Shown here one piece after another: positions 15,791 to 36,500 of a stretch of DNA of 64,000 nt. Where the stretch lies: NCBI RefSeq assembly GCF_001677475.2, contig NZ_CP012497.1, one strand, 5' to 3'. Each line of letters starts with the position of its first letter. Positions within the stretch are counted from its first letter, which is position 1. A program made the translations under genes and the position numbers. This DNA comes from Escherichia coli. GTDB lineage: Bacteria > Pseudomonadota > Gammaproteobacteria > Enterobacterales > Enterobacteriaceae. Below the pieces are notes generated by a model, which ran no database searches, was not told the DNA's origin, and saw nothing but the letters and a program-made list of their open reading frames with translations.

Positions 15791-16083
15791 ATTGCCATAG
15801 GGGGAAGGGTAGCCATTGTTGTATGCCTCATACAGCTGAATCCCGGATGTCCCCTGTGCATTCGCCCCAGAGCCGTTACGCGACCACGCGATACCATAGT
15901 ATTGATATTAATGTCACCAGAACCATCGAACCTGACGCCATTAATGTTTCTGGCTGTTTTCAATTTCGTTGCGGTATCGGCGTTCCCTGTCAGCGCTCCG
16001 GTGATCCCGCCGTTGAAAGTCTGGCGCGCACTCCATGTGTTAGCCGTGCTCAACAGGGGGATCTTTTCACCGCTGGTACCGAG
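15485..16083. repeat. Right inverted repeat of C-segment
   Basis: Reverse-complement match to 11816-12416. Confidence 0.65.
15505..16053 (-). pseudogene. S segment encoded in the right inverted repeat, in a different frame from Sv'
   Basis: Begins [44 protein letters not shown], same as the end of the S constant region; after ...RVTALG the fibre reading ([20 protein letters not shown]) continues only in another frame. Confidence 0.4.
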
Positions 16084-16111
16084 TTCTCTTAAACCAAGGT
16101 TTAGGATTGAA
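16084..16111. other. cixR-like recombination site
   Basis: TTCTCTTAAACCAAGGTTTAGGATTGAA; its inner half is the reverse complement of the inner half of the left site. Confidence 0.55.
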
Positions 16112-16661
16112 ATGATGACGCAGGAAACTTTTTATAAAGCGTGGAAACAGCAACATCATAGATGATTGCAACCTGCTTACGGGGGATGCCATTCTCCAGC
16201 AATCGACGCATTTGCTGCCATGTTTCTTCTTGGTATTTAGGCCGACGGCCTCCTATTCGACCTTCTGCGCGAGCTGCATCAAGTCCAGCGCGTGTACGTT
16301 CAACGATAAGCTCGCGTTCCATTTCAGCCAGCGCCCCCATTACGTGAAAGAAAAAACGCCCCATTGGTGTACTGGTGTCGATAGAGTCAGTGAGACTCCG
16401 GAAATTAATTCCTCTGTCACGCAGCTCTTCCACCAGCACAACCAAGTGACGCATGCTGCGCCCAAGACGATCTAACTTCCATACGACCAGGGTGTCACCT
16501 CTGGAAAGCATACGCAAAACCTTTTTTAGCCCAGGGCGTTCAGTCTTTTTGCCGCTCGCCTTATCCTCAAAAATTAGCTCACATCCTGCGCTTTCAAGGG
16601 CATTTCGTTGCAAAGCAGTGTTTTGTTCATTTGTTGATACGCGTACATAGCCGATCAGCAT
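16101..16661 (-). CDS. cin: Cin/Pin/Gin-family serine DNA invertase
   Basis: 186 aa, MLIGYVRVSTNEQNTALQRNA...LVVWKLDRLGRSMRHLVVLVEELRDRGINFRSLTDSIDTSTPMGRFFFHVMGALAEMERELIVERT; near-identical over long stretches to Pin/Cin. Confidence 0.9.
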   Translation of the reverse strand: MLIGYVRVSTNEQNTALQRNALESAGCELIFEDKASGKKTERPGLKKVLRMLSRGDTLVVWKLDRLGRSMRHLVVLVEELRDRGINFRSLTDSIDTSTPMGRFFFHVMGALAEMERELIVERTRAGLDAARAEGRIGGRRPKYQEETWQQMRRLLENGIPRKQVAIIYDVAVSTLYKKFPASSFQS

Positions 16662-16782
16662 GATTTTTACTCTAATGCGTTGTTCTTATGAGTCTGCGAA
16701 TTTTAAAGAACAAAGCGTTATGCACAGAAATAACAATCTGAATAGGTTCCTGCTTGATTTTTGTTAGATCCGGGAGGAGCTT

Positions 16783-17067
16783 ATGCAGATTTTGATTTTT
16801 TTAATGTCCATTATTAGTGGAACCTATTTATTTCTTACTGGAGTTAGGCGTGGAGCTTATAAGCCATGTTTTTTACATTGGCTTGAAGCATGGCTGCTTG
16901 CCATAAAAGGTGGTTTTGTTGGTTTTTGTCTTGCAGAAGTTCAGTGGGGAAACTCATTTTTGAATGTGGTTGCTTTTTTGATATGTAGTTGGAATAGCCA
17001 TTTTGTATTAAGAATAACCAAAATATGGGTTTTTCACTTGATTTACGAATGTATTGGCAAATTATGA
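16783..17067 (+). CDS. Hypothetical small hydrophobic protein
   Basis: 94-aa ORF with hydrophobic segments in the AT-rich region between cin and lydA; coding status uncertain. Confidence 0.2.
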   Translation: MQILIFLMSIISGTYLFLTGVRRGAYKPCFLHWLEAWLLAIKGGFVGFCLAEVQWGNSFLNVVAFLICSWNSHFVLRITKIWVFHLIYECIGKL

Positions 17068-17127
17068 ACAACCAGATGAGAAGTTACTTTGCATACCATT
17101 ACCTCCTGACAACGTAGGAGGGAACTT

Positions 17128-17457
17128 GTGCTTGACACACAGGAATTAGCTCCAGTTGCTATTGCGCTCCTGCTTTCAGTAATTGGTGGGATAGGCACGT
17201 TCCTGATGGATGTCCGAGACGGTCGCCAGTCTGGCAATTTGTTGGGATTGGTTACGGAGATCTTTGTTGCAGTGACAGCTGGCGCGGTGGCGTACCTATT
17301 GGGGCAACACGAGGGCTGGGAGTTATCAATTACGTACTTAATGGTAACGATAGCCAGCAATAACGGTCATGAGGTGATTTCAGGGATGAAACGAGTGAAT
17401 ATCGATAGCATTCTGAATGTTCTTACAAGTTTGGTGAAAAAGGGAGGCGGGAAATGA
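17128..17457 (+). CDS. lydA: Holin LydA-like
   Basis: 109 aa with hydrophobic transmembrane segments; first gene of the operon after cin. Confidence 0.55.
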   Translation: MLDTQELAPVAIALLLSVIGGIGTFLMDVRDGRQSGNLLGLVTEIFVAVTAGAVAYLLGQHEGWELSITYLMVTIASNNGHEVISGMKRVNIDSILNVLTSLVKKGGGK

Positions 17458-17897
17458 TTGGCTGGGGTGTATGCGTTCTTGCGTTAGCCTTAGCCGATCG
17501 CTATTTGCTAAAACGCAAGGACATCACGCATTTAGAACTTGGTGATGTGGAAATTAAACCGGGTTTCATCCGGGTGCCGTTCAAATACCGGTCTAAATTC
17601 CCGTTTTTGCGCGGCGCAACGGTCAGATATTGGATCCGCGATGTTCAGAAGCCGACGACAGTGATTGAAGGCGAACAACGTTGTCTGACGTCAGCTGAAC
17701 AGGGCGAAAACAGTGAATGGTTGTACATACCCACTGAATATATGGGTAAAGGAGAGCGACTGTGGCATTTCAACGTCATGGTTACGCATGGCGACTCGTT
17801 CATTAACCCGTTGTATCGGATTTTCCCTGTTACTCAGCAAATCCGCAGAAGTTACGTAATAAATCTCGCACAGGATGTGTCAGATGACGAAAAATAA
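17454..17897 (+). CDS. lydB: LydB-like (antiholin position)
   Basis: 147 aa, N-terminal transmembrane segment, 4-bp overlap with lydA. Confidence 0.45.
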   Translation: MIGWGVCVLALALADRYLLKRKDITHLELGDVEIKPGFIRVPFKYRSKFPFLRGATVRYWIRDVQKPTTVIEGEQRCLTSAEQGENSEWLYIPTEYMGKGERLWHFNVMVTHGDSFINPLYRIFPVTQQIRRSYVINLAQDVSDDEK

Positions 17898-18486
17898 GTA
17901 TGCAACGGTCGATTTTGACCAGGTTAATGAAAAGGGGCTGAAATCCCTTATCGCGGCGATCAATAAAACCGGTGTTACGGTAATTGAGGTTGACTCCAGC
18001 AACCGCGCAACAACGAAAGATGGCGTTAAAGTTAAAACCGCAAAGCTGGTTCTTAACGACGGACAAATTCTTGCCATACAGGTAAACGATACTGGCGATA
18101 TATCGTCTGTGAAACTGAATGGAAAAGCTATTCCTAACGCTCAGTCGCCGGATATCAAGACGCTTGGTACCGTCATGGGACAGGCGGCCCGCAAAAACTC
18201 CGCAAAATTCCAGAAATCACTGATCGCCAAAGCGAAGCGTGTTGCCAATCCGGTAGACAAGAAACCGGCAGTTAAATCCAACTTTCAGCGCCTGCAAGAA
18301 GCAAAACAGCGGAATGCTCAGGTGGTTGCCGCTTATAAGTCCGCGCAGAATTCGGTGTCTTTCAATCAACAGCAGATCACTGATTTGCGGGCGAAGCTGG
18401 ATAAGGAGACGGGCCGACTCAATAACGAAAAGGCACGGAATGGCGAACTCAAACGTCGTCTTAAGCAACTGAAAGCAGGAAATTAA
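17875..18486 (+). CDS. hdf: Hdf-like (homologue of DarA fragment)
   Basis: 203 aa; shares the KNSAKFQ-containing segment with the next gene product; position matches P1 hdf. Confidence 0.5.
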   Translation: MCQMTKNKYATVDFDQVNEKGLKSLIAAINKTGVTVIEVDSSNRATTKDGVKVKTAKLVLNDGQILAIQVNDTGDISSVKLNGKAIPNAQSPDIKTLGTVMGQAARKNSAKFQKSLIAKAKRVANPVDKKPAVKSNFQRLQEAKQRNAQVVAAYKSAQNSVSFNQQQITDLRAKLDKETGRLNNEKARNGELKRRLKQLKAGN

Positions 18487-18487
18487 C

Positions 18488-20101
18488 ATGGAACAGTTAA
18501 ATATCAATAAAGGGGTGACGATCAAGCCTGGGCTTGACGTGCTTCCCCCGCCAGTGACTGATGATGAATATCGCGCATTAATGGCCGGTGAGGACCGCTA
18601 TCTGATGACGGAATCCAACACCCTGGAGGAAATCGAGGCTACGTTCTTCTATGACACGCCGATCCACTGGTGTGCTACGGATTTACTGGAGGCGATTAGT
18701 TCTACTCGTTTGCAGTTACACCGGACCATGCAGGCATTTGTCCGGGCATTGAACCAGAAGCTGAATGGTACCGGAATCTCTGCGGGGAGTGATAAAACGG
18801 GGGAGGTGGCCCAGAGCGGCGCGCGCGCGATCGGCGGTGCTGAAATTGGCCGGGCACGTAACGTTAACGGGCTGCCGGTCCTGCCAGCCATTATTCCGCT
18901 CAGTGATGGTCAGACTATCAGCATTCTGTTTCATAGCCCGACAGCGGAAAACCGGATCACCAATAGCGATACGCTGGTTGCTTTCCAGTTCTTACTGAAT
19001 AAAAAAGACGTTACTCACACCGTTGCTCCGATGAGTGGACGTGATATGACGCTGGCGCAGGTCACCATGAAACTTGCCAACCTTGCAGAGAAAAACTCGG
19101 CAAAATTCCAGCGTGCGCAGAAGAAGAAAAAAGCCCTGGTTGATGAAATAACCCAACTACAGGCTGACAGTGACCAGAAAGAGGATGCCATGAGCGACCT
19201 CGCGGATCAGGTGGCAGCGGTAGAAGGGCAGAAGGTAGATCTGGAGCAGAAAATTAACGCTGTTGCATCGGAAGCGGATTCTCTTTATGAAGAGAATGAG
19301 CGTTTGCAGACGGAGATTGATCAGCTCAATCGCACAGGTGGGCGCGATACCATTGATCCAGCGGGGATGACTGGTGGGCACTCGCGCGCGCTGACGGATC
19401 GCCTTGCCAGTATCAAAAATCGTATGCATATGAACGGGGAAGTGACGCTCAGTAATGGAGCATCAATGAAGCAATTCATTGAGGACGGCGAAGGGTATAT
19501 CCAGTTAACCGATTCGGATGGCAGCGTGTACATGATCAAGGCTAAATCCATACAGGGTGTGGACATGGCAGATGCGATCGGCAAGCTGTTTAAAGCCTAT
19601 AAAGCGGGTAATGTATCGGAATACCTGGTCCAACCAGAAGAACATAAACCGGAAAACGTCGAACCTGAACCAGCGGAGGATACCGGTAGCTCTTCGCCTG
19701 AACCAGAAGTCTCTGTAGGTGCATATCGATATGCCCTGCAAATGCGTCCGGCGGCCCCTGGCGCAATACCTGAAGGTAACAAAGCAATTCTGCCGCGCCC
19801 TGATGAAGGTGACCCGTATTATGAATATGCACGCTACGGCATTGCTACTTACGATACCCCGCTTTCTGATCAGCAAATGAGTGAGTACGACCTGAAGTTA
19901 TTGCCTCGCGAGGATTCTTTCGACTTCCTGGCGAAGACACTTACTAATGGTCCGTTTGGCAAATATGCACAAAAAGCTCTGGAGCTGGCCACCAGCTCAC
20001 CAGACGAGTTCCGCGTAATGCTGAAAACTCAGTTTCAAAAAACTTTCCCCAATATTGCGTTTCCGGGGGCGCTGGCACCGAGAAAATGGTGCAGAGCATG
20101 A
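18488..20101 (+). CDS. darA: DarA-like antirestriction protein
   Basis: 537 aa; segment LANLAEKNSAKFQRAQKKKKAL is paralogous to Hdf; coiled-coil region. Confidence 0.5.
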   Translation: MEQLNINKGVTIKPGLDVLPPPVTDDEYRALMAGEDRYLMTESNTLEEIEATFFYDTPIHWCATDLLEAISSTRLQLHRTMQAFVRALNQKLNGTGISAGSDKTGEVAQSGARAIGGAEIGRARNVNGLPVLPAIIPLSDGQTISILFHSPTAENRITNSDTLVAFQFLLNKKDVTHTVAPMSGRDMTLAQVTMKLANLAEKNSAKFQRAQKKKKALVDEITQLQADSDQKEDAMSDLADQVAAVEGQKVDLEQKINAVASEADSLYEENERLQTEIDQLNRTGGRDTIDPAGMTGGHSRALTDRLASIKNRMHMNGEVTLSNGASMKQFIEDGEGYIQLTDSDGSVYMIKAKSIQGVDMADAIGKLFKAYKAGNVSEYLVQPEEHKPENVEPEPAEDTGSSSPEPEVSVGAYRYALQMRPAAPGAIPEGNKAILPRPDEGDPYYEYARYGIATYDTPLSDQQMSEYDLKLLPREDSFDFLAKTLTNGPFGKYAQKALELATSSPDEFRVMLKTQFQKTFPNIAFPGALAPRKWCRA

Positions 20102-20406
20102 TCAATGCATTGCAGGCCGAAGTCGGTGAGATTACTCAGCCAGAACCTGCCCCGGCACAGCCTGATGAAACGGTTAGCGAAGCAGATGCAGAGGCTAATA
20201 AAGCCATTGAATATCTCAATAACGTGATGGATATGCAAAGCACTGACATGGCGGAGATCCGTAACGCCCGGGGTAATGTCCGGGAAGCGATTGCAGCCCT
20301 TCAGGCTGCCGGGCGTTTTGAGGAAAACGAAGAGCTGGTTAATGGCGCTGCTCGCCACCTGGCTGATCTGCTGGTAGCAATCCAGAAAGCGGGGGTAGCG
20401 GCATGA
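20086..20406 (+). CDS. Small acidic protein (ddrA region)
   Basis: 106 aa ORF overlapping the darA-like stop. Confidence 0.3.
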   Translation: MVQSMINALQAEVGEITQPEPAPAQPDETVSEADAEANKAIEYLNNVMDMQSTDMAEIRNARGNVREAIAALQAAGRFEENEELVNGAARHLADLLVAIQKAGVAA

Positions 20407-20768
20407 CACTATCAGCTATTGAGTTAATGGACCTCAGCGACAAGTTGGATTCTCTGATGTCCAAAGCTGCTACCGCGAGTGGCATGGAGTTGCTGGATAT
20501 CAGCGATGAAATTGACCAGATCATGCAACAGATGGGGTACGGCGCGTCCGGCGGTGGTAGTGGCGAGGAAAAACAACCTTCGGAACATGATGGTGTGCCA
20601 AAACTGGTTGCTGATTTCCTGGCTGATAAATTCGTCGATCAGAGCACAGATGCATTTATCGGTACCTTGCAGGACTTGAGTCAATATGTTGGCACATACA
20701 TCGACCTGGACCAGGTTAAACAGCACACGGCGGCATGGATAGCCGCCAACATTGAAGAGGCAGCATAA
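20403..20768 (+). CDS. Small acidic protein (ddrA region)
   Basis: 121 aa, 4-bp overlap with the upstream ORF. Confidence 0.3.
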   Translation: MTLSAIELMDLSDKLDSLMSKAATASGMELLDISDEIDQIMQQMGYGASGGGSGEEKQPSEHDGVPKLVADFLADKFVDQSTDAFIGTLQDLSQYVGTYIDLDQVKQHTAAWIAANIEEAA

Positions 20769-20780
20769 GGCGTAACAGGG

Positions 20781-22997
20781 ATGAGCTTAAGCGATCAGGT
20801 GGTAATTGCCACCAGCATAGAAACGCTGATCGAGCTGCTTAAGAACCTGCCCGATTATGGGCGGGTTTCGTATGTGGTGACAGCGAAGGGAGACGAGGTA
20901 AAAACAGCGTTTGATATCGTCGATGCCTCAGCTCTTTTGGTATCCAATACTCTGGATGGGAAAATTAATCCTGACTATCCCCAGGAACTTCAGCCGCGCG
21001 ACCGGACCCGCGCATCCAGCCTTCTTCAGGTTAACCAGATATCCAAAGATTTGCGGCCTGCTCAGCTTACCGATTCCGGTTTATCCAGCCATGGCGCGCC
21101 GATAATTGGTGAGGACAATGCCGTTGAGTCAGGTAATGGACGGACCATGGGAATCATTAAAGCCTATCAGGACGGCAATGCGGATCGGTATCGTGAGTAC
21201 CTGATTGAACATGCGACCGAATTCGGCATACGACCTGAAAAGGTTGAATCAATGACGGCTCCTGTATTGGTGCGCCGCCGGTTAACTAAGGTTGACCGCG
21301 TTCAGTTTGCCAAGGACTCAAATATTTCTGATCTTCAGGAAATGGCAGCCAGTGAAAAGGCTTTTGTTGATGCCGACAGCATAACACCGGCGATGATGGC
21401 GCTGTTTAATCCGTCAGAAAGCGGAGATCTGCTTAGCCGCAGTAATGACGCGTTTATTCGCGGATTCATGACGCAAGTTGGTGCCACACAGGCTGCTGGC
21501 CTTGTAACGGAAGATGGGCGACCAACGCGGCAACTTGTTGACCGTATACAAAACGCGATCTTTGCCAAGGCATATAAGGATGCGCGCCTGGTAAGGATGG
21601 TTGCAGAAGAACCTGATCCGGATATGCGTAATGTTCTGACGGCGCTTAATGCGGCAGCCAATGATTTTGTCCAGATGCAGGCTTTATCAGGAGAAGCGCA
21701 CAAGCAGGCTGTGACAACTATTGTTGATGGCATTGAGACAGCGGATAGCCTCGATAAAAAGGCGCTGGCGGCATTGAAAGATGCGGTAGACCTGGTAAGG
21801 CAATCGAAGGAGTCAGGCCAGCATATTACCGATGTTATTGCTCAGGGGGATATGTTCAGCGAAACGGCCCCGGAAGTGAAAGCACTCGCGTTGTTCATCG
21901 TCGCGAATAACCGTAGCGCGAAGCGTATGGCCACCGCCTTTAAGTTGATGGCTCAACGTATCAATGATGAGTTACAGCACCAGGGCCAGGCGCTGGGGGA
22001 TATGTTTGGCGGCGGCGATGTGTCGTTACAGGATATCCTTCGCCAGGTGTCTCAGGAACTGGAAAACGAAGGCATGCAAGGGATATCCGGCGGTCTTTTC
22101 GAGTCCGTTTCCGGCGGTAGTTACAACGGTGTTGCTCCATATACCAGCTTGCTATTACATCGGGCATCCGGCATCAAAGACATTATTCATCTGATCAGGC
22201 TGCTTTCCCGTACAGATCCCCAGGATGAACAGCTTGTACAAGTGCTTGCGCATTTTGTTCGAATGCCTGTTGCCGACGTGAATAAATGGTGCCGATTATT
22301 CGGTATCAGCAATTCGTTACTTCGCGGATTGTTAAATCACGCATCCTCCCTTGGGCGCGACGGCTTTGATGAGATAGCGCAGGCGATACAAAACGGAGAT
22401 ATGCCACCAGCTATTGACTGGTTTTCCATTCGCCCAACCAGGGTGAAAGCATTCCTTAGCGCGGCGCATTCGGCATCACCATTGGCAGAAATGGTTCAGA
22501 GGTTGTCGCTCATATTCACAGACCATACCGCGTTGGGTGATCTGACTCTGGACGAGATGAAAGAAGCCTCCATTCAGTGGGCCGATCAACAAAATGAGGT
22601 TAACTCAGACTTCTTGCCAGCATTCAGGAAGGCCGTTAGTAAAGCGGATGATTCCCGTGGAATTCTGAAGGCATTTAAGGCATTGCAAAGTCGGGTTAAT
22701 AAACATGTCGGTGATATCGATGGGGTAACGGCGGAAGGCAGGGATATTCTTAAAGAGCACGGCATAACGCCAGAGTTTATTGATGAGATCAGGACGGATA
22801 TGCAGCGTGAGGTCGTATCGTCCCTGCAAATTGTAGCCAGAGCGTTGGCGGATGCTAATCCGAAGAGTGCGGCCATTGTTAACCGGGTTATTGGTGATAT
22901 TGAAGCATCGGAGGGCATGGGGGCGCTGAAACTCTTCCTTTCGCGAGCGTTTAATCCTAACGGCAATATTCTCCCTGGCATTATTGGTGAGGTATGA
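20781..22997 (+). pseudogene. ddrB: ddrB-like gene, 5' part, interrupted by IS insertion
   Basis: 738 codons ending ...ILPGIIGEV followed by a stop inside the IS; the reading frame resumes exactly after the IS. Confidence 0.55.
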
Positions 22998-23085
22998 GAC
23001 GACAATAACTCAGTCCGCCTGGCGCCGATTATTCTGGCCGGTTTTGTAACCTGAGTGTCATTTACATGATCCAACAGGAAATGGC

Positions 23086-24585
23086 GTGACGCTCAATACT
23101 TCTCAGGTCAGTTACTATATGACTCAGCGTAAGAAAGGTATAACTCAGCATATCTCGGCCATGAAGGCTGGTATCTCAGTCCGTTCTGGTCGTCGGATCG
23201 AAAAAGGAGAGTGGGCAAAAAACAGTGTTCGGCACTGGCGCACACGCAAAGATCCTCTGGAAGCTGTGTGGGACAGCATGCTTGTTCCTCTGTTGAAAGA
23301 GAGGCCGGCTCTGACACCAACAACTCTACTGGAGATGCTACAGGATAAATATCCCGGCCAGTACCCCAACAGCCTTCGAAGAACAATGCAACGGCGGGTT
23401 CGCGAATGGAAACTACAGTATGGTACAGAGCAGGAGGTCATGTTCCGCCAGCAACATCAGCCCGGCCTGCGAGGCCTGTCGGACTTTACTGAACTGAAAG
23501 GTGTAGTTGTCACCATCGCCGGTAAGTTGTTGGCGCATAAGTTGTATCACTTCCGTCTGGAATGGAGCCACTGGAGCTGGATGCGGGTTGTTCTGGGTGG
23601 TGAGAGCTTCTCTGCTCTGGCTGAAGGCCTGCAGGAAGCCCTCGGACAACTGGGCGGAGTGCCGGTAGAACATAAAACGGACAGCCTGAGGGCAGCATGG
23701 AAACAACAGGGCGAAGATGGACGCCGCGAGCTGACTGAGCGTTATGCTACTCTCTGTCAGCACTACGGAATGCAGGGCGTACACAATAATGCCGGTCGGG
23801 GCCACGAAAATGGCTCGGTTGAAAGTGCCCACGGACATCTGAAAAGGCGTATCTGTCAGGCGCTGATACTGCGGGGCAGTAACGACTTCAGCACCATAGA
23901 AGAATATCAGGCCTTCATCACTCAGCAGGTTATGCGGCACAACCGTAACAATCAGGATCTGGTCAAGGAAGAACGTCTTCATCTGAAACCGCTGCCGCTT
24001 CGTCGCAGTGCTGACTATGATGAGCTGACTGTGAGGGTTAGTCGCAGCAGTACCATCAATGTGAAGCACGTCGTCTACAGCGTACCTTCCCGGCTTGTAG
24101 GTCAACTGTTACGGGTCAGGTTATGGGACGATCGTCTGAGCTGTTACGTTGGCAGCAGCGAGGTCATGAGCTGCCCTCGCGTCAGACCAGAAAAAGGGAA
24201 GACGCGGGCCCGTCGTATCGACTTCCGACATGTGATCGACAGTCTGGCAAAAAAGCCCGGTGCGTTCTGCCATGCAACGCTGAGAAATGACATCCTGCCG
24301 GACGATGAATGGCGGAGGCTGTGGCGTCGCTTATGTAATCATCTGGAGCCCGATATGGCAGGAAGGCTGATGGTACATGCCCTGAAACTGGCTGCAGGAT
24401 ACGACGATATCTCAGTCGTGGCAAAAGGTATGGAGCAGATGCTGAATACCCCGGGAAACGTGGATCTGCACCGGCTGATGCGCTTCCTGGGTATAAAAGA
24501 AAAGGCGTTGCCGGTAGTCAATGTGATACAGCATAACCTGAGCAGTTATGAGCAACTACTGCGTGGCAAGGGAGGTTCGCAGTGA
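23086..24585 (+). CDS. istA: IS21-family transposase IstA
   Basis: 499 aa; N-terminal HTH and integrase-core-like region; followed by overlapping istB. Confidence 0.85.
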   Translation: MTLNTSQVSYYMTQRKKGITQHISAMKAGISVRSGRRIEKGEWAKNSVRHWRTRKDPLEAVWDSMLVPLLKERPALTPTTLLEMLQDKYPGQYPNSLRRTMQRRVREWKLQYGTEQEVMFRQQHQPGLRGLSDFTELKGVVVTIAGKLLAHKLYHFRLEWSHWSWMRVVLGGESFSALAEGLQEALGQLGGVPVEHKTDSLRAAWKQQGEDGRRELTERYATLCQHYGMQGVHNNAGRGHENGSVESAHGHLKRRICQALILRGSNDFSTIEEYQAFITQQVMRHNRNNQDLVKEERLHLKPLPLRRSADYDELTVRVSRSSTINVKHVVYSVPSRLVGQLLRVRLWDDRLSCYVGSSEVMSCPRVRPEKGKTRARRIDFRHVIDSLAKKPGAFCHATLRNDILPDDEWRRLWRRLCNHLEPDMAGRLMVHALKLAAGYDDISVVAKGMEQMLNTPGNVDLHRLMRFLGIKEKALPVVNVIQHNLSSYEQLLRGKGGSQ

Positions 24586-25337
24586 GCAATATCCATCACC
24601 TTGAACATAGCCTGCGTAAACTACGCCTGACACGAGTTGGAGCTGAATGGCACGCTCTGGAAAAACGAGCGCTGGCAGAAGGCTGGACACCATCGCGCTA
24701 TCTTCTGACGCTATGCAATGAAGAACTCCTGTGGCGCGAGAGTGAAAAACTGCGTCGTTATAAAAAGGAGGCCCGGTTGCCAGTTGCCAAAACGCTGAGC
24801 GAATACGACTTCAGTCAGGTGCCGGAACTGAATGGAGCTCAGTTCCGGCAACTCTGTGAAACGACAGACTGGGTTGATGCAGGAGAAAACGTTCTGCTGT
24901 TCGGAGCCAGCGGGTTGGGGAAAAGCCATCTGGCGGCAGCGATCGTGGATGGCGTAGTAGGTCAGGGCTACCGGGCCCGGTTCTACAGCGCAGGAGAGCT
25001 GTTGCAGGAACTACGTAAAGCCAGAGCTCAGTTGAAACTGAATGAGCTGCTACTGAAACTGGATCGCTACCGGGTGATAGTGGTGGATGATCTTGGCTAT
25101 GTCAAACGCGATAGTGCCGAAACGGGTGTGCTGTTCGAGTTAATAGCGCATCGCTATGAACGTGGGAGCCTGGTGATAACCAGTAACCATCCGTTCAGCA
25201 TGTGGGGCAGCATCTTCGTGGATGAGACTATGGCGGTGGCTGCGGCAGACAGGCTGATCCATCACGGATATATGTTCGAACTGAAAGGGGAAAGCTACAG
25301 GAAAAAGACAGCGAAGGCAGTAACAAGCGCGACTTGA
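24582..25337 (+). CDS. istB: IS21-family ATP-binding helper IstB
   Basis: 251 aa; Walker A GASGLGKSHLAAA and Walker B VIVVDDLGY. Confidence 0.85.
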   Translation: MSNIHHLEHSLRKLRLTRVGAEWHALEKRALAEGWTPSRYLLTLCNEELLWRESEKLRRYKKEARLPVAKTLSEYDFSQVPELNGAQFRQLCETTDWVDAGENVLLFGASGLGKSHLAAAIVDGVVGQGYRARFYSAGELLQELRKARAQLKLNELLLKLDRYRVIVVDDLGYVKRDSAETGVLFELIAHRYERGSLVITSNHPFSMWGSIFVDETMAVAAADRLIHHGYMFELKGESYRKKTAKAVTSAT

Positions 25338-25389
25338 TGTCGCCCTGAAGGGTGCGGCCAGTATAGTTGGCGCGAGTCGGCAAAACTAG

Positions 25390-26184
25390 TTGACGTCTAA
25401 TAGTGAGGCTAAAAAGTATGTCAGTGAAGAAGAACTTGAGCAGCTTGACCAACTACTTAAGCGATTCTCATATAACCCGCAGACACGCTGGCAAATGAAT
25501 CAGCGAAGTATGGGTTCGGTCCACGAGAAAGTGTTATCTGCCATGAACAGTGCGATCGCAAACTCATCCGTATCTGAAGAAAAAGCTCTTGAGTGGGCCG
25601 ACTCTTTTATCACAGAAGAAGTGGAAGAAGCCCGCGCTGGACAGAATGGTGGGATAGACCTGCGCAAGGAACTTGCTGATATTTATCGCCTGACCGGCGG
25701 GAAAATATCGACCTTATCAAAGGTAGTTCACCACCAGGGAAGGGCATATGCAAATCTAAATGGTGTTGTTGCTGTCAATTTGAACGATGAAAATGCAAGT
25801 GCACTGTGGCACGAGCTGGGTCATCATCTTGAGTACAGTAACCCTGGTTTGTTAGAGAAAGCCCGGTCATTCCTGAAGGCCAATGTTGAAGGGGATAAGC
25901 CATCTTTCGTCAATATCGGTGGGCGTGGCAAGCCTGAATGGTGCTTCAGATCTCGATTGAGTAATATTTATATGGCGAAGGTATACCCGCCAGCCTCAGT
26001 AAGTAACACCGGGAAAATTCGGCAGAAATCACCGACTATTTCCAAAACGTCAGCAACGGAAGTATTCTCTATGGCTCTTCAGTTGTATCATGACAAAGAG
26101 GCCGCTGCCGCATCACTGATGAATGGTGACGGATTGCTGGAACTGTTATTAGGTGTGGCAAAGGAGCTAAATAATGCAGATTAA
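25390..26184 (+). pseudogene. ddrB: ddrB-like gene, 3' part
   Basis: Frame continues from the upstream part once the IS and one copy of GTGAGG are removed (...GIIGE|AKKYVSEEELEQ...). Confidence 0.5.
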
Positions 26185-26482
26185 AATCGCAGCGCCATTA
26201 GGTGGAGATGCCATTATCGAATTTGATGATAATGAAGAAGTTTCCGGGCGTTTAAGCATTATCTCCGGTGACATTACCGAGGACATGATCGCTGAAGCCA
26301 TAGCTGGAGCAAATCCCAATAGCTATATGGGATTCGTTAACACCCTTGATGCTCCCGCAAGTGATGTTCTCCGAACGCTGCATCTTTACGCTGGCTGGTT
26401 TGTTGATTGGCCAGCAGTAGATGGTGGCGATGAGGACGACGACGATGATTTTGGTGATCATGTAGACCAGATCGTATATTGA
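26174..26482 (+). CDS. Small acidic protein
   Basis: 102 aa with a Asp/Glu-rich C-terminus (DGGDEDDDDDFGD); last gene of the plus-strand operon. Confidence 0.35.
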   Translation: MQIKIAAPLGGDAIIEFDDNEEVSGRLSIISGDITEDMIAEAIAGANPNSYMGFVNTLDAPASDVLRTLHLYAGWFVDWPAVDGGDEDDDDDFGDHVDQIVY

Positions 26483-26513: not shown

Positions 26514-27608
26514 TCACGAGAAGCTTTTTTCTGATGTCAGCCAACAGTGCTCGTGCAAATCTCTTGGTGGTTTTTCGACAAACGCCTCTTCAGCCACATC
26601 CTGCCAGGGGATTTGTTTAGCCCATTCAGTTATAGCGTTATGGTTTGCCGAGAATAACGGTATTGTATAGGCCTTCAGCCAGTCTAATGTGCTGGAGTTG
26701 TGTTTTTGAGCGTGATGTTTCGCATGGTGTTTGGCGATCACGATCGTAGGCACTACCCATTTACTACCGTCAGTCATTGTGAAGTGCATATTACGGGGAA
26801 CAGATGACTTTTCCATCAACTCCCGAATCCCGGGGAATTTCCCCAAGATCAATCGGCGATATTCATCGCTATTGCGTCCACCAAACTCTTTGGCTTTGAA
26901 TTCAAGATATGCTTCAGAAACGAGAGGTGAATCCTCTGTGTTTAGAGTTATCGCCGTGAAAAAACCAGCAGGATTGTTTTTACTATGGGCCAACCGGTGA
27001 TGCGAATCATAAAAGTACCCTTTCTCGCGTTCCGATGGTTTCGACAGCAACAGCAGGCGCGAGTCATAATTGGTTAAATTGCCAGTTATCACTGCATGAG
27101 CGCGATCGCTGATTTCCGCCGAGTTAATAACGATGAAAAGATCGTGCGGTCCAGTAAAACCAGCCAGAGACTCTTCGTTATTCAGACAATAGGTTATATA
27201 GACGCATCCCCATGTTTCACTGATATGCACCAACCCTTTGTCAGGGTGTATTCTGAAATAATTGCCAAGAAAAGGGTGTTTTTGGGTAACTCGCTCCCAA
27301 TAACGGAACATATAGTCAATTATTGTTTTTCGACTATCGTTAATCGCAGGAGAAACAACCACTGTACGGGAACACGAATACAGTATTGTTTGCAGGATGC
27401 TAATCACTGCCACAATAGAGGTTTCCCCAATACCATGTGGTGTGGTGGCAGTGACTTTGGCTCCGGTGTTCTTTATCGCGTTAATAATTTTTGCTTGATG
27501 AGGTGTTAACTCAATATCAAGCAACTCTTTTGCTGCCAGTTCCCAATTGTCTTTATACCGTTCTATCAGTGCTAACCAGGCAGATTCATTCTGTATACGA
27601 TTAATCAC
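26514..27608 (-). CDS. Terminase-large-subunit (PacB) ATPase-domain paralogue with degenerate Walker A/B; no nuclease domain
   Basis: 364 aa; alignable with the PacB N-terminal 250 aa in this window (e.g. GYFYDSHHRLA...FTAITLNTEDSPLV vs [11 protein letters not shown]...[14 protein letters not shown]); Walker A HGIGETS vs PacB HGTGKSD; Walker B VINSAE vs IIDEAS. Confidence 0.6.
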   Translation of the reverse strand: MINRIQNESAWLALIERYKDNWELAAKELLDIELTPHQAKIINAIKNTGAKVTATTPHGIGETSIVAVISILQTILYSCSRTVVVSPAINDSRKTIIDYMFRYWERVTQKHPFLGNYFRIHPDKGLVHISETWGCVYITYCLNNEESLAGFTGPHDLFIVINSAEISDRAHAVITGNLTNYDSRLLLLSKPSEREKGYFYDSHHRLAHSKNNPAGFFTAITLNTEDSPLVSEAYLEFKAKEFGGRNSDEYRRLILGKFPGIRELMEKSSVPRNMHFTMTDGSKWVVPTIVIAKHHAKHHAQKHNSSTLDWLKAYTIPLFSANHNAITEWAKQIPWQDVAEEAFVEKPPRDLHEHCWLTSEKSFS

Positions 27609-28383
27609 TTTCCACCTCTTCCGTGGTGTTTTCTTGCAGTTCTGTTAATGCAGCACGACATAGGTTCCGGGCATTGGCTATAGCCACACTTTTGACTTCA
27701 TCCGTCATCGTGCAGGTAATGTACTGATCGAGTTCTTCAGCGCGGATGATGCTTTTGCCAATCAGAAACTGTATTTGCCATAGCAGATCGGCATCCATAA
27801 TCAGAATTTCTGCCGGGCCTTCAGGGCCAGCCGGGAAGGAAACATAAGACTGTTTGCCCAGGCCGACAACTCGACAACTTGCTTCAAGAATTGCGCGCTT
27901 GAGGTCTGACTTTATAACGGAAACAGGTTGATTTTCACCAGTGATTACGCCGTTGACATGGAAAGGCATGTAGCTTGAAATACGCTCCACTTTCCACACG
28001 CCAGCAAGCGATCCTTCATGCAGCACAATGGGGGTAACCGCGAGTTTCATCTCACCATATAACTGCTGGCAGATAGCTGGATTGCTGAATACATCTAAAG
28101 GCTCACATTCAAACAGCGGCGCAATCTGCATGAGGTCCATCATGGTCATCCCTGGGGTACGAGCAGTAATGAATCTGCGCATACCAGTATCCATTGCGCT
28201 CCAGATTGCTACACCATGCTTTTTGCTCACTTCTTCAGTAAAGCCAAGGTGGCACATGATGGTTTTTTCGATAGCCAGATCAGAGATCGAAACCTTTTCG
28301 CCAGGCACACCATCATTATTGATGGTCACTTCGACACTCTGACCATTACGCAGGCGGTATTGAATTGCTTTAGTATTTTCCAC
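27601..28383 (-). CDS. Hypothetical protein (middle gene of ssb-linked operon)
   Basis: 260 aa; 8-bp overlap with the downstream gene, 6-bp gap from the upstream gene. Confidence 0.45.
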   Translation of the reverse strand: MENTKAIQYRLRNGQSVEVTINNDGVPGEKVSISDLAIEKTIMCHLGFTEEVSKKHGVAIWSAMDTGMRRFITARTPGMTMMDLMQIAPLFECEPLDVFSNPAICQQLYGEMKLAVTPIVLHEGSLAGVWKVERISSYMPFHVNGVITGENQPVSVIKSDLKRAILEASCRVVGLGKQSYVSFPAGPEGPAEILIMDADLLWQIQFLIGKSIIRAEELDQYITCTMTDEVKSVAIANARNLCRAALTELQENTTEEVESD

Positions 28384-28389
28384 GTTAAA

Positions 28390-29118
28390 TCACTCCACTA
28401 CAAACCAGTCACATGCCAGTAAATCATCCACAGACGGCAACCAAACGCTGTCCATATTTTGTGCATCTTTCAATACAAAATGGTCACCATAAGGAACGTG
28501 AATGCCGTGTAAATTGACGCTTCCAGCGAGAACTAACCAGCAGAATTGCTTTTCGCCTTTCCACTCGCGTCGGGCAACTTTCTTGCCTTCCTTCAACCAC
28601 ATTAGCGCGTCAGAGAAGTCGGCTGCTTCAAGGTCGATTTCTTCTTGTGTGGTAATGATGCCACCGGCAGCAATAGTTACGTCCCTGGCTGTAATGAATG
28701 TCACCCCATTGTGACCTTCAATGCTAAGCGATACCTCATTTTCGAAGAAGTCGTTAGTCCGACTAAAGCCTTCTTCAAATGTTTTTTCTGGTGAATAGGA
28801 CAGATAACCGTCCTCATAACCGAGCAGATAGCCGCCAGTATCTGGTCGGTGTTTTTGCAAAAACGCTGCATCAACACGAACCGTTACGCCTTGGGGGTCC
28901 ATTAATGTGATATAGCCACAAGCAGGGGTATTATCAATCAATGAGATAATCTCGATATCTTTGATTTTCGATGCACTAACGATTTTGTGAGCTTTGTATT
29001 TGGGAAGGAACTTAAAAAGCTCTTTCGTTGCCATTTTATTCATAGTCTTTTCTCTGCTTAAAATTTGATGTATTGCGCCTTCAGGTGGGGAGGAATGTTT
29101 TCCCACCAGCGAAAGCAA
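28390..29118 (-). CDS. Hypothetical protein with C-terminal DUF2829-like (Tad2-like) motif
   Basis: C-terminus [25 protein letters not shown]...[18 protein letters not shown] resembles the DUF2829 signature as I recall it; true start probably an internal Met (MNKMATKEL) near 29040. Confidence 0.4.
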
Positions 29119-29713
29119 TGCCTCGGGGTGTTCTTTTCGTGAAAAGCGCGTGCCATTGCCAGCTTTGGCGTTTTTTAGCGAGTTCGTGCTTTTGTCGGCG
29201 TCTGGACCACCGCTTTTCTTTCAGTCGTTTTTGAATATCGTCGTCAAAGTCCATTGGAGGTTCGTTATTGGCGTTGCTCTGAGGTTTACCGCCACCACTG
29301 TATTGCTGGTGGTTTTGAGGTTGGTTTGATTGCCCCCAGCCATTTGAGGACTGTGAATCGTCACGGCGAGCGCCGATCATTTGCATGGTGCCGCCCTGGC
29401 TGACGATAATTTCCGTCGTGTAACGTTCTACACCGGCGTCATCTGTCCACTTACGGGTTTTAAGTTTCCCTTCGATGTAGACCTGAGAACCTTTTCGTAA
29501 ATACTCACTCGCAATTTCAGCAAGTTTTCCGAACAAAACGACTTTATGCCATTCTGTTTGCTCTTTCTGTTGGTCCGTTTGCTTGTCGCGCCATGATTCA
29601 TTCGTTGCGATGCTGAGTCTTCCGACCGCGCCGCCATTTGGTATATACCTGATCTCCGGGTCTTGCCCCAGGGTACCAATCAGGATGACTTTGTTTACAC
29701 CGCGTTGTGCCAC
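29081..29713 (-). CDS. ssb: Single-stranded DNA-binding protein; annotated ORF has an unusual C-terminal extension
   Basis: OB-fold N-terminus [23 protein letters not shown]..., Gly/Gln-rich linker, acidic tip PPMDFDDDI at residues 152-160; the canonical IPF ending is absent and the frame runs 50 more codons. Confidence 0.8.
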
Positions 29714-33528: not shown

Positions 33529-36500
33529 ATGAACAAGCTATCTATGGGGGTGTTTCGCTGTTCAAGTGTCAGCGAAATATTGAAATACATTAGGGCAATA
33601 ACATCTCACCGAGCGCCGATTAAATACGGCGTGGAAAAGGTGGAAGGCAAAAGCTATGACCGACTGCGCCGGGAGGCGAATCAGAAGGCGATAGATTTGC
33701 TTAATTCGCTGGTGGACGGCGCGACACTGACAGATGAACAGCGCCAGATCCTGGCTGGGTACACCGGTGAAGGCGGCATTGGCGGGTCCGTCTCCGAATA
33801 TTACACACCAAAGCCGATCGCTGAAGGTGTCTGGGAGATCATGAAGCTCTACGGCGCGGACGTAGGTAACACTCTGGAACCATCGGCGGGAACTGGCGTT
33901 TTTAATGAGACAAAACCGGTTGGTACGGTGATGACCGCGACTGAGATCAGCAGTGTTTCCGGTCGTATAAACCAGTTGTTACACCCGGAAGACAGCGTAC
34001 AGATTTCCCCGTTCGAACAGCTGGCTATAAGCACACCTAACGATTCATTCGACCATGTTGTGGGTAACGTTCCGTTCGGCGGTCGTGATAACACACGCAA
34101 CATCGATAAGCCTTACGCAGAAGAAACGGACATGGGTTCTTACTTCATGCTCCGCATGCTGGACAAGATAAAGCCAGGCGGATTCATGTGCGTGATTGTG
34201 CCGCCGTCCATTGTTTCAGGTTCAAACATGAAGCGGTTACGCCTGCGCCTATCACGGAAAGCTGAATTTCTTGGTGCCCACCGCTTGCCTACCGGTACTT
34301 TTGACGCAAACGGGACCAGTACAGTCGTTGATGTGGTGCTGATGCGCAAACATCCGGCAGAGATGGCTGAGAAAATCCCCCTGGTGGATGAAAGCACTCT
34401 TGAATCGGCAAATGTGCTTTGGCCAACGTTTATTTCTGGCAAGTGGTTTGAAAAGGATGGCCGCCGGTTTGTTCATGGTACCCAGGAAAAGGGCTTCCAG
34501 GGGCGTATTGAGGTTCGTGCCGACGGGCAGATTGATAACCAGGCTCTTAAAGCGAAGCTGATTCATCGTTTCGAAAGTCGTATCGACTGGTCTTTGCTCG
34601 ATATGGCTGAACCGTCACCGACCGCAGATGTTGTTGATGAAGGGGAAATGCGCCTGATTAATGGCGTATGGCAAAAATATGCTGGTGGTCGCTGGATTGA
34701 AGCTGATGCTGGTAAGGAGCTTAAGATTGATGCTGCCAGTTATGGCGCGGATAGCTGGGAGGCTCTTCAGCGTAACCTGACTACAACAGAAGGCCGTCTC
34801 GGTATGACATTTACCCAGATGGCAAATGTCCGCGATAAGTACACCACATCAATCAGCGACGATATGGTGCAGCTGGTGGACTGGATTAACAGCCAGCCTG
34901 AAAAATACCGTGAACGCTTGTATCGCGGGGCGATGATTGGCCGGATGTTAATTGAATATCAGGATATGAAGGCCGCCGGGCATAGTGCTGAACAAATCGA
35001 ACAGAAGCGCCTTTCTCTGGTATCCCGTTTGCAGGCAGAGATTGACCGTTTTGGTAACCCCGGTCGCGGTCCGATAGCTAAATTATCGGGAAGCGGTGCG
35101 CGCGCCTGGTTTGCTTTCCGTGGGGCAATTAAGCTGGATGGCACTATTTCTGACGAGCTGACAGGAAAGCTGGTTACGCATGATTCCAGCGCCAGTTATG
35201 ACTCCACCAGCTATCAGGACACCCTGCGTTATCTCTATAGCGATCTTACCCGCGATCCAATCCAGCTCGATGATTTCCGCCTTGCGTTTACCGGCGAACT
35301 GCCAGCCAGTGATGAAGAGTTGCTTAATTTATTGGCCAGCACCCCTGGTATTGCGGTTTCACCGTATGGCGGGATTGTTCCGTTCGCCCGCGCCACCAGC
35401 GGCGACATTAACGAGATAGTGGCTCCAAAACAGGAATTCCTTGCCACACTCCCCGACGGTCCAGTAAAGAACAACGTCCTTAATCAGCTGGCAGCGATCG
35501 AAGAGAAGCGCATCAAGACGCCAGCAGAGAATATCCGCTTTAAGCTCAATAGCCGTTGGTTCGACCGCTCCGTCATTCTGGAGTTTTTGCAGAAAAACGG
35601 CTATCCGGATCTGCGCTATGTGCAGTCAGTGCAGCTGGAAGGCGACGAAATGGTTTCTGACACCTATCACGGTGGTGATGGTCTGTTCGTCGGGCACCGA
35701 TACGGTGTCGTCCAGCGCAAGGATAAAGAAACAGGCGAGATCCGCTACGAGTGGGACCGTAAATCAGGTGAAAACGCGACCGGGTTCCCGGCACAGCTGG
35801 AAAAGTATCTCAATGGTGCGCGTATCGGTGGCAAAGATAGCGCGACGGCGAACGGCTACCGCGAGCAGATGGCACTGCTTGAGGACCAGTTCAATAAGTG
35901 GATCAAGACGCACGATCGCTACGATGAGCTGGTTGCCAAATACAACGATGTGTTCAATAGCAATATCCCGTATGAACACTCTGGCGATCCGCTTGGGTTG
36001 AAGGGATTAAGCGGTAAGCGTCAGCCATTTGATTACCAGAATAGCGAGGTGCGCCGACTGTCCGAAGATGGGCGCGGCATCCTGGGCTTCGGCACCGGGC
36101 TGGGTAAAACCACGACCGCGCTGGCACTTGAGGCGTTCAACTATGAGAACGGTCGCTCCACCCGTACTGCGTATGTAGTGCCTAAATCAGTGCTGGAAAA
36201 CTGGTATTACGAAGCAAAAGAATTCCTGAGTGAAGAGGCATTCAGTAACTACCTGTTCGTCGGTCTTGATGTGCTGATGGATGGCGATCAGATTCGCCAG
36301 GTGCCGGTGCTCGATGAGAACGGTAAACCTGTTCTTGGTGCTGATGGCACTCCAGTTATGCGCGATGCTCTTAAGCTGGCAGATGAAGCCACTATCACGG
36401 CGCGGATGAATGCGATCCCGCACTCAAATTACCGTGCAGTCGTGTTTACCAAAGAACAATACGCCCGCATTCCGCTACGTGATGACACCGTAGATGAGCA

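Follow-up and report, generated by a model that had tools for sequence, protein, structure and literature searches.

Adjacent hdf and darA genes of a P1/P7-type darA operon share a DarA_N domain marked by the heptapeptide KNSAKFQ

The name of the bacteriophage P1 gene hdf stands for 'homologue of DarA fragment'. The P1 proteins DarA and Hdf pair via their long helices, which form a parallel bundle (Zheng et al. 2026, PMC12810830), and 55 DarA-Hdf pairs are bound to the inside of the capsid where pentons and hexons meet, with a basic face contacting DNA (PMC12810830). According to cryo-EM of P1, these heterodimers fix the head size and nucleate the packaging of other antirestriction proteins (PMC12810830); packaging of DarB, DdrB and Ulx depends on both Hdf and DarA (PMC12810830, PMC9024508). 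DarA, Hdf and their partner proteins accompany the DNA when it is ejected and shield it from type I restriction (PMC12810830, PMC9024508); this mechanism is also the subject of bioRxiv 10.1101/2025.11.26.689930, and the P1 virion proteome is that of PMC9024508. A survey of polyvalent phage proteins characterized the DarA-N domain by a conserved Asp and an N-x-basic motif (Iyer et al. 2017). The relationship between Hdf and DarA, as well as their pairing in the phage head, is therefore already published, in the gene name, the Pfam family, the 2017 domain survey and the 2025-26 cryo-EM work.

We analysed a 64-kb stretch of Escherichia coli DNA (the window), which carries what is, as judged from its sequence, a P1/P7-type darA operon of a phage-plasmid; all features given below lie on the plus strand. 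A preliminary description had made this assignment by synteny, and it holds beyond synteny: positions 16000-22992 show 98.0-98.6% DNA identity to P1, P7 and RCS47, the genes come in the order cin, lydC, lydA, lydB, hdf, darA, ddrA, ddrB, as in P1 and P7, and the late promoter LPdar (-22 box and -10; 17081-17099) has the same sequence as LPdar in the P1 annotation (L001 4092-4110) and in P7. The first gene of the operon is lydA (17128-17457), an ORF for a holin of 109 aa that is colinear with P1 lydA at 98% nucleotide identity. It is followed by lydB (17454-17897), encoding the 147-aa LydA antagonist, also colinear with P1, the 3' end of which overlaps the start of hdf. Downstream of darA lies ddrA (20403-20768; 121 aa), colinear with P1 ddrA and matching PHROG 1855 'DdrA-like anti-restriction protein' (E 3e-57), and then the 5' part of ddrB (20781-22992), with a Pfam ddrB-ParB domain at 36-167 (E 1.4e-39). 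Homology to P1 and P7 ends at 22992, at the edge of an ISEc10 element of the IS21 family (22993-25402), which contains istA (23086-24585; 99% nucleotide identity to ISEc10 istA) and istB (24582-25337; product IstB_IS21, E 9e-62) and is flanked by a 6-bp target duplication, GTGAGG, at 22987-22992 and 25403-25408. The 5' ORF of ddrB reads into the element and stops at 22997, giving 738 aa versus 995 in P1. Past ISEc10, ddrB resumes (3' part, 25403-26184), and positions 25403-26480 are 98-99% identical in nucleotides to the 3' end of ddrB and to hxr of P1/P7. The P1 order behind LPdar, lydA-lydB-hdf-darA-ddrA-ddrB-hxr, is kept, with ddrB interrupted by ISEc10. The junction of ddrB with ISEc10 was found neither among the plasmids of PLSDB nor among complete E. 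coli genomes.

Between lydB and darA, hdf occupies positions 17875-18486 and encodes 203 aa, the length annotated for P1; with 17884 as the start instead, 8 nt downstream of AGGA (17872-17875), the product is the 200-aa form of the P7 annotation and of most database entries. The protein differs from P1 Hdf (gp25; PDB 9ukm/9vz0 chain H) in only 2 of 203 residues (T27A and S61N relative to P1), has the same length as 9ukm_H and shares with it the DarA_N domain and C-terminal helix. Phage phi456 and two other P1 records have exactly this Hdf, which matches PHROG 1620 'Hdf-like antirestriction' (E 5e-80). The location between lydB and darA and the overlap with lydB are the same for P1 Hdf and for its P7 counterpart OdaE. 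By near-identity and position we assign this gene as the orthologue of P1 hdf.

The gene pair had been described as spanning 17875-20101. The ORFs are as described; position 20101, however, is not the natural end of darA. Compared with P1 and P7, the window gene lacks 1 bp at about 20064-20067, a frameshift that had been overlooked, and the intact gene would end at 20406. The sequence at the deletion site is CCGGGGGC in the window, CCAGGGGGC in P7 and CCGGGTGGC in P1, and a global alignment of darA contains a single gap, at this site (1919 nt in the window versus 1920 nt). The deletion shifts the frame at codon 528, and therefore the 537-aa product of the 5' ORF (18488-20101) consists of DarA residues 1-527 and 10 out-of-frame residues (ALAPRKWCRA). 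The in-frame part differs from P1 DarA at 13 of 527 residues and matches PDB 9ukm_I. The detached 3' part (20086-20406) is an ORF of 106 aa that corresponds to DarA residues 534-639, with 1 of 106 residues different from P1, and to PHROG 1926 positions 539-658 (E 5e-52). P1 DarA (gp24, 639 aa; PDB 9ukm/9vz0 chain I) thus shares with the window protein the DarA_N domain, the DarA_C domain (PF18789; residues 411-472, E 5e-17) and the operon position, but has an intact 639-codon frame, whereas the window ORF stops at 20101. The window copy keeps intact the part of DarA that is resolved in structures, residues 70-382. The frameshift allele is also found in pE2865-1, and the identical out-of-frame tail occurs in only 2 of 464 plasmid records, which makes it a rare allele. 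We consider the window darA to be an orthologue of P1 darA by descent, in a frameshifted copy that is possibly pseudogenised or mis-sequenced. For the two genes, plain hdf and darA are more fitting names than the 'hdf-like' and 'darA-like' of the preliminary description.

The segment KNSAKFQ, reported to occur in both products in similar context, is indeed present in Hdf at residues 107-113 (nt 18193-18213), in the middle of a predicted helix (94-124) that is the last helix of the DarA_N domain, and in DarA at residues 202-208 (nt 19091-19111), at the junction of the N-terminal domain and the long helix. The context is similar (Hdf ...GQAARKNSAKFQKSLIAK... versus DarA ...LANLAEKNSAKFQRAQKKK...) because in both proteins the motif belongs to the helix that closes the DarA_N domain; both copies lie within a helix and are followed by basic residues. 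KNSAKFQ is the longest exact peptide common to the two proteins and the best-conserved spot of their wider homology, though within family PF18788 it is not the defining motif and is placed at the C-terminal edge of the domain. It is strongly conserved in DarA, where N203, K206 and F207 are invariant across three diverged proteins, and variable in Hdf (NNSVKFR, SNSLKFQ, RNTVKFT, RGATSFQ and others); its Phe is the only motif residue invariant across the diverged Hdf and DarA proteins compared. Judging by helical periodicity alone, the Asn and Phe would face the core of the domain and the lysines would be exposed. Escherichia phage D6 and Cronobacter phage JK004 also have the genes in the order lydA-lydB-hdf-darA-ddrA-ddrB, with a two-protein architecture like that of the window, but their motifs are unequal: NNSVKFR in Hdf versus KNTAKFQ in DarA of JK004, and RGATSFQ versus RNSEKFK in D6. 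The exact identity of the heptapeptides is therefore specific to the P1/P7 lineage.

A heptapeptide could in principle be shared by chance alone, the two proteins being rich in lysine, alanine and glutamine but not truly homologous. Both proteins do contain low-complexity, coiled-coil-like stretches, and a 6-residue peptide shared with DarA was found in 17 of 2000 shuffled Hdf sequences; a shared 7-residue peptide, however, was found in none of the 2000. Nor is the similarity limited to the heptapeptide. BLASTP of Hdf against DarA gave 28/90 identities at E 7e-4, but outside the motif the wider similarity is weak by pairwise alignment: the alignment upstream of the motif alone has z = 3.5 (11 of 1000 shuffles equal or exceed the observed score), and the one downstream is not significant (137 of 1000 shuffles). 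Profiles gave a much clearer answer. With the gathering score of 27 bits as the threshold for membership, both proteins belong to DarA_N (PF18788), each matching profile positions 2-122 of 122: Hdf with residues 13-109 (77.3 bits, E 1.1e-21) and DarA with residues 66-204 (145 bits, E 1.2e-42). Alignment of the two family profiles with hhalign gave 95.5% probability and E 1.4e-8 over about 145 columns (Hdf 42-201 versus DarA 120-282), and 95.2% and E 2.6e-8 when repeated with a 15-sequence Hdf profile, carrying the homology past DarA_N into the following long helix. When the six sequences of three Hdf/DarA pairs are aligned, D62, Q64, L81, N82 and F112 (Hdf numbering) are invariant. The hallmarks of the DarA-N domain of Iyer et al. 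are present in both proteins (D62 and N82-G-K84 in Hdf; D140 and N171-K-K173 in DarA), and neither the Asp nor the N-x-basic motif varies among the six aligned sequences or among 15 Hdf proteins. Hdf and DarA are thus alike in the full-profile match, the Asp and the N-x-basic motif. Because the downstream pairwise score is not significant, composition could contribute to the coiled-coil part of the alignment, but coiled-coil composition alone does not explain the similarity, as the DarA_N match spans the beta-rich part upstream of the helices.

Structure comparison points in the same direction. [quoted passage not shown] The global TM-score of the superposition is low (0.40-0.44) and the rmsd large, because helix orientations differ between the model and capsid-bound DarA. 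[quoted passage not shown] Plain pairwise alignment gives weak evidence of the wider homology, and it is only profiles and structure that settle the matter. The shuffles, the same full-length Pfam domain in both proteins, the hhalign result (E of about 2e-8) and DarA as the top structural match together refute a chance origin, to which we give almost no credence, and bear out the earlier proposal that Hdf is a homologue of part of DarA.

A minor point of interest is the match at the DNA level, which hints weakly at short-tract gene conversion. The two KNSAKFQ copies form a 21-nt direct repeat with 20 of 21 bases identical, the best direct repeat in the region; its sole sites in the 64-kb window are those in hdf and darA (chance expectation 0.01). 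Such a repeat within both genes might be a DNA- or RNA-level signal, either a protein-binding site or a regulatory element, and its rank and its exactly two occurrences would suit this reading. However, the two copies occupy corresponding codons of proteins that are themselves homologous, the window holds no third copy, and in JK004 and D6 the nucleotides vary freely, including at synonymous sites of darA (AAAAATACTGCCAAATTCCAA in JK004). A regulatory repeat was rejected on the lack of a third copy and of nucleotide conservation in JK004 or D6, and we regard it as very improbable. Alternatively, the exact identity may reflect gene conversion, with darA as donor of a short tract to hdf within the P1 lineage, or selection keeping a surface patch the same on both partners, because a ligand bound by both members of the heterodimer (such as DNA, the capsid protein or DdrA) demands one and the same helix surface. 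In favour of this pair of explanations, the 20/21 nt of the motif copies contrast with 24-nt flanks that share only 6 and 7 nt, and the same codon is used for 6 of the 7 motif residues but for 13 of the 35 remaining identical residues of the alignment (Fisher one-sided p = 0.025; likewise p = 0.025 against the expectation from local codon usage). Also in favour, the 21-nt core of the window hdf is nearer to its own darA (20/21) than to the orthologous JK004 hdf (14/21), while its flanks are nearer to JK004 hdf (16/24 and 18/24), and donation from darA fits a motif conserved in DarA and variable in Hdf. The test, though, is post hoc and its p is only about 0.025; a tract of 21 nt that lacks homology on its flanks is below the length that homologous recombination normally requires; and each motif residue of P1 Hdf occurs in some other Hdf, so that ancestral retention and drift are enough. 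The different motifs within the JK004 and D6 pairs also argue against these explanations, and led us to reject a general concerted evolution of the hdf-darA pair. Chimeras of hdf and darA arising by deletion between the 21-nt repeats were not found (0 of 51 Hdf-family clusters exceed 210 aa). Overall we think conversion or selection, taken together, unlikely; if true, either would mean concerted evolution, on a local scale, of two paralogues that are otherwise saturated.

The above results make it very probable that the element is a P1/P7-type phage-plasmid with hdf and darA as tandem paralogues in its late-transcribed darA operon. The two proteins have in common a core in which the DarA_N domain, of alpha+beta type (one helix, then a small beta-sheet and the closing helix), is followed by a long alpha-helix; DarA has in addition an N-terminal propeptide and C-terminal domains. 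The heterodimer, its location in the capsid and its antirestriction role would apply to the element in the window by extension from P1, solely through the 97-99% identity to the P1 proteins. The antirestriction system of this element may be partly disabled, given the frameshift at codon 528 of darA and the ISEc10 insertion in ddrB. Given what has already been published on P1, the value of this analysis is mainly correct annotation: the window carries a P1/P7-type darA operon, and the heptapeptide marks a genuine common domain. The two lesions, the darA frameshift and ddrB::ISEc10, are relevant to any inference of Dar-competent, large-headed virions from this phage-plasmid.

The region 16000-22992 of the window shares 98.0-98.6% DNA identity with phages P1, P7 and RCS47 as well as with many P1-like plasmids. 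Its genes cin, lydC, lydA, lydB, hdf, darA, ddrA and ddrB are colinear with those of P1 and P7 (where the counterpart of hdf is named odaE), and a late promoter identical in sequence to P1 LPdar lies at 17081-17099 (+ strand). The darA-operon assignment, made previously by synteny, is thus borne out. On the same strand, hdf (17875-18486, 203 aa) is directly followed by the 5′ ORF of darA (18488-20101, 537 aa). Against the P1 proteins, Hdf has 2 substitutions and DarA has 13 within its first 527 residues, and each matches its own chain in the deposited cryo-EM entry (9ukm_H and 9ukm_I, respectively); the ORFs are hdf and darA proper, beyond mere resemblance. The start of hdf is ambiguous (17872-17886), with two candidate ATG codons on the + strand. 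The ATG at 17875 (203 aa), used in the P1 annotation and the PDB entry, directly abuts an AGGA, whereas that at 17884, which gives the 200-aa form annotated in P7 and in the majority of database entries, is spaced 8 nt from it and looks like the better start.

The peptide KNSAKFQ, reported by the preliminary description in both products, was located at Hdf 107-113 (nt 18193-18213) and DarA 202-208 (nt 19091-19111), and is the longest peptide they have in common. A chance match was ruled out, since none of 2,000 shuffles of Hdf produced a 7-mer shared with DarA; the observation is therefore confirmed. BLASTP aligned Hdf 44-115 to DarA 122-210 (28/90 identical, E 7e-4). With the motif excluded, the pairwise score upstream of it gave z = 3.5 (reached by 11 of 1,000 shuffles), and that downstream was not significant (137 of 1,000), so that plain pairwise evidence without the motif is weak. 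Profile methods are decisive for a wider homology. Pfam DarA_N (PF18788; gathering score, 27 bits) matches over profile positions 2-122 of 122 both in Hdf (residues 13-109, E 1.1e-21, 77 bits) and in DarA (66-204, E 1.2e-42, 145 bits). Comparison of Hdf and DarA alignments (window/P1, Cronobacter phage JK004 and Escherichia phage D6) by hhalign gave 95.5% probability and E 1.4e-8, and a 15-member Hdf profile gave 95.2% and E 2.6e-8 (Hdf 42-201 against DarA 120-282). The joint alignment shows no variation at D62, Q64, L81, N82 or F112 (numbered as in Hdf). Iyer et al. [quoted passage not shown]

In an AlphaFold2 model of Hdf (15-sequence alignment, mean pLDDT 81.5), a short helix (23-31) precedes five strands (36-81); helix 94-124 follows, and a loop then leads to a long helix (136-200). 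The best two PDB matches of this model are solved P1 DarA chains, 9vz0_I at E 5e-6 and 9ukm_I at E 3e-5, aligned over 200 columns at 21% identity; the match ranked after them has E 0.03. The global TM-score against the DarA chains is low (0.40-0.44), because helix directions differ between the model and capsid-bound DarA. The ranking and E-values of the modelled fold nevertheless support a common fold. KNSAKFQ lies within helix 94-124 and therefore in the helix that closes the domain common to both proteins; in DarA this helix runs straight into the long helix, while in Hdf a loop (~125-135) intervenes. The view of Hdf as a homologue of part of DarA, with similarity wider than the heptapeptide (the test named beforehand), is therefore supported by BLASTP, full-length PF18788 matches, hhalign and the structural match.

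Across DarA proteins (~39% identity) N203, K206 and F207 are invariant; in Hdf proteins F112 is the only invariant motif residue, followed by S115, L116 and K119. From helical periodicity, N108 and F112 presumably share a face with L97, M101 and L116, packed on the sheet, and K107, K111 and K114 would be exposed, in agreement with the published basic, DNA-facing surface of the N-terminal domains. The motif pairs of JK004 (NNSVKFR in Hdf, KNTAKFQ in DarA) and D6 (RGATSFQ, RNSEKFK) are mismatched, so exact identity is a feature of the P1/P7 lineage.

The sole unexplained residue of the finding is the nucleotide identity of the two motif copies: 20 of 21 nt, with 24-nt flanks sharing just 6 and 7 nt. 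Over the 21-nt core, hdf agrees with the window's darA at 20/21 positions and with JK004 hdf at 14/21, whereas the hdf flanks are nearer JK004 hdf. These contrasts are compatible with conversion of hdf by a very short stretch of darA. Six of the 7 motif residues use the same codon in both genes, compared with 13 of the 35 remaining identities in the alignment (Fisher p = 0.025; also p = 0.025 against codon-usage expectation), a weak hint in the same direction. However, this comparison was post hoc, such a tract would be very short and ancestral retention suffices, which makes conversion improbable in our view. A DNA-level signal behind the 21-nt repeat is likewise unlikely, given that the 64-kb window holds no third copy and that nucleotides at the motif vary freely in JK004 and D6.

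Set against its P1 and P7 counterparts, darA lacks one base at ~20064-20067 (CCGGGGGC versus CCAGGGGGC and CCGGGTGGC), so that DarA residues 1-527 are followed by 10 foreign ones and a stop; a detached 3′ ORF (20086-20406, + strand, 106 aa) encodes DarA residues 534-639. The span 17875-20101 described earlier does hold the adjacent hdf and darA ORFs, but its end is this premature stop. Plasmid pE2865-1 of E. coli (NZ_AP018809.1) shares this allele, and plasmid NZ_CP058773.1 of Shigella flexneri has the identical out-of-frame tail; among 464 plasmid records that cover the region, these 2 are the only ones, and ~99% of P1-like plasmids lack the allele. Either the deletion is a genuine, rare allele, or the same homopolymer error has recurred in sequencing.

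Downstream, ddrB is broken at 22992/22993 by ISEc10 (IS21 family; 22993-25402, 2410 bp; istA 23086-24585, istB 24582-25337), flanked by a 6-bp target duplication, GTGAGG, and followed by the 3′ part of ddrB and hxr (25403-26482). This junction was absent from the PLSDB plasmids and complete E. coli genomes searched. Within ddrB, an antisense ORF (21335-21733, − strand, 132 aa) has the position and length of annotated P1 iddB. An overlapping pair of 364- and 260-aa ORFs (26517-28383, − strand), without Pfam match, sits where P1 has isaB/IS1 and P7 nmpC, and recurs in pE2865-1; the site looks like one at which P1-like plasmids carry variable cargo. A 242-aa ORF (28393-29118, − strand), adjoining an SSB gene (29084-29713, − strand), carries at its C terminus a domain that resembles Tad2 (Thoeris anti-defence 2, PF11195; E 4e-18). 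Further on, a 2255-aa ORF (33529-40296, + strand) with N6-methylase, SNF2 and helicase domains agrees in length with P1 DarB. Its frame appears intact, and this DarB-like ORF places the second half of the Dar antirestriction system in the same window.

Earlier work covers the finding in full: the name hdf, the Pfam family DarA_N, the domain survey of 2017 and the structures of 2025-26. In the P1 heads studied by Zheng et al. 2026 (PMC12810830), DarA is resolved over residues 70-382 and Hdf over 135-203. There, 55 DarA-Hdf pairs line the inner capsid surface at penton-hexon junctions, joined via a bundle of parallel helices whose charges are complementary, and contact DNA through a positively charged face of their N-terminal domains. 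Heads with all DNA ejected lacked the pairs, and the unseen DarA residues 1-69 fit cleavage by the prohead protease. Earlier genetics, as cited there, had deletion of hdf or darA reduce normal-size heads from ~80% to ~15% and keep DdrA, DdrB, DarB and Ulx out of virions. An independent preprint (bioRxiv 10.1101/2025.11.26.689930) reports the same placement, with small T=7 heads without appendages, and the P1 virion proteome (PMC9024508) lists both proteins as head-size determinants. Because of the 97-99% identity, we take the P1 mechanism as the default for this element, in which, by analogy, DarA-Hdf would work as in P1.
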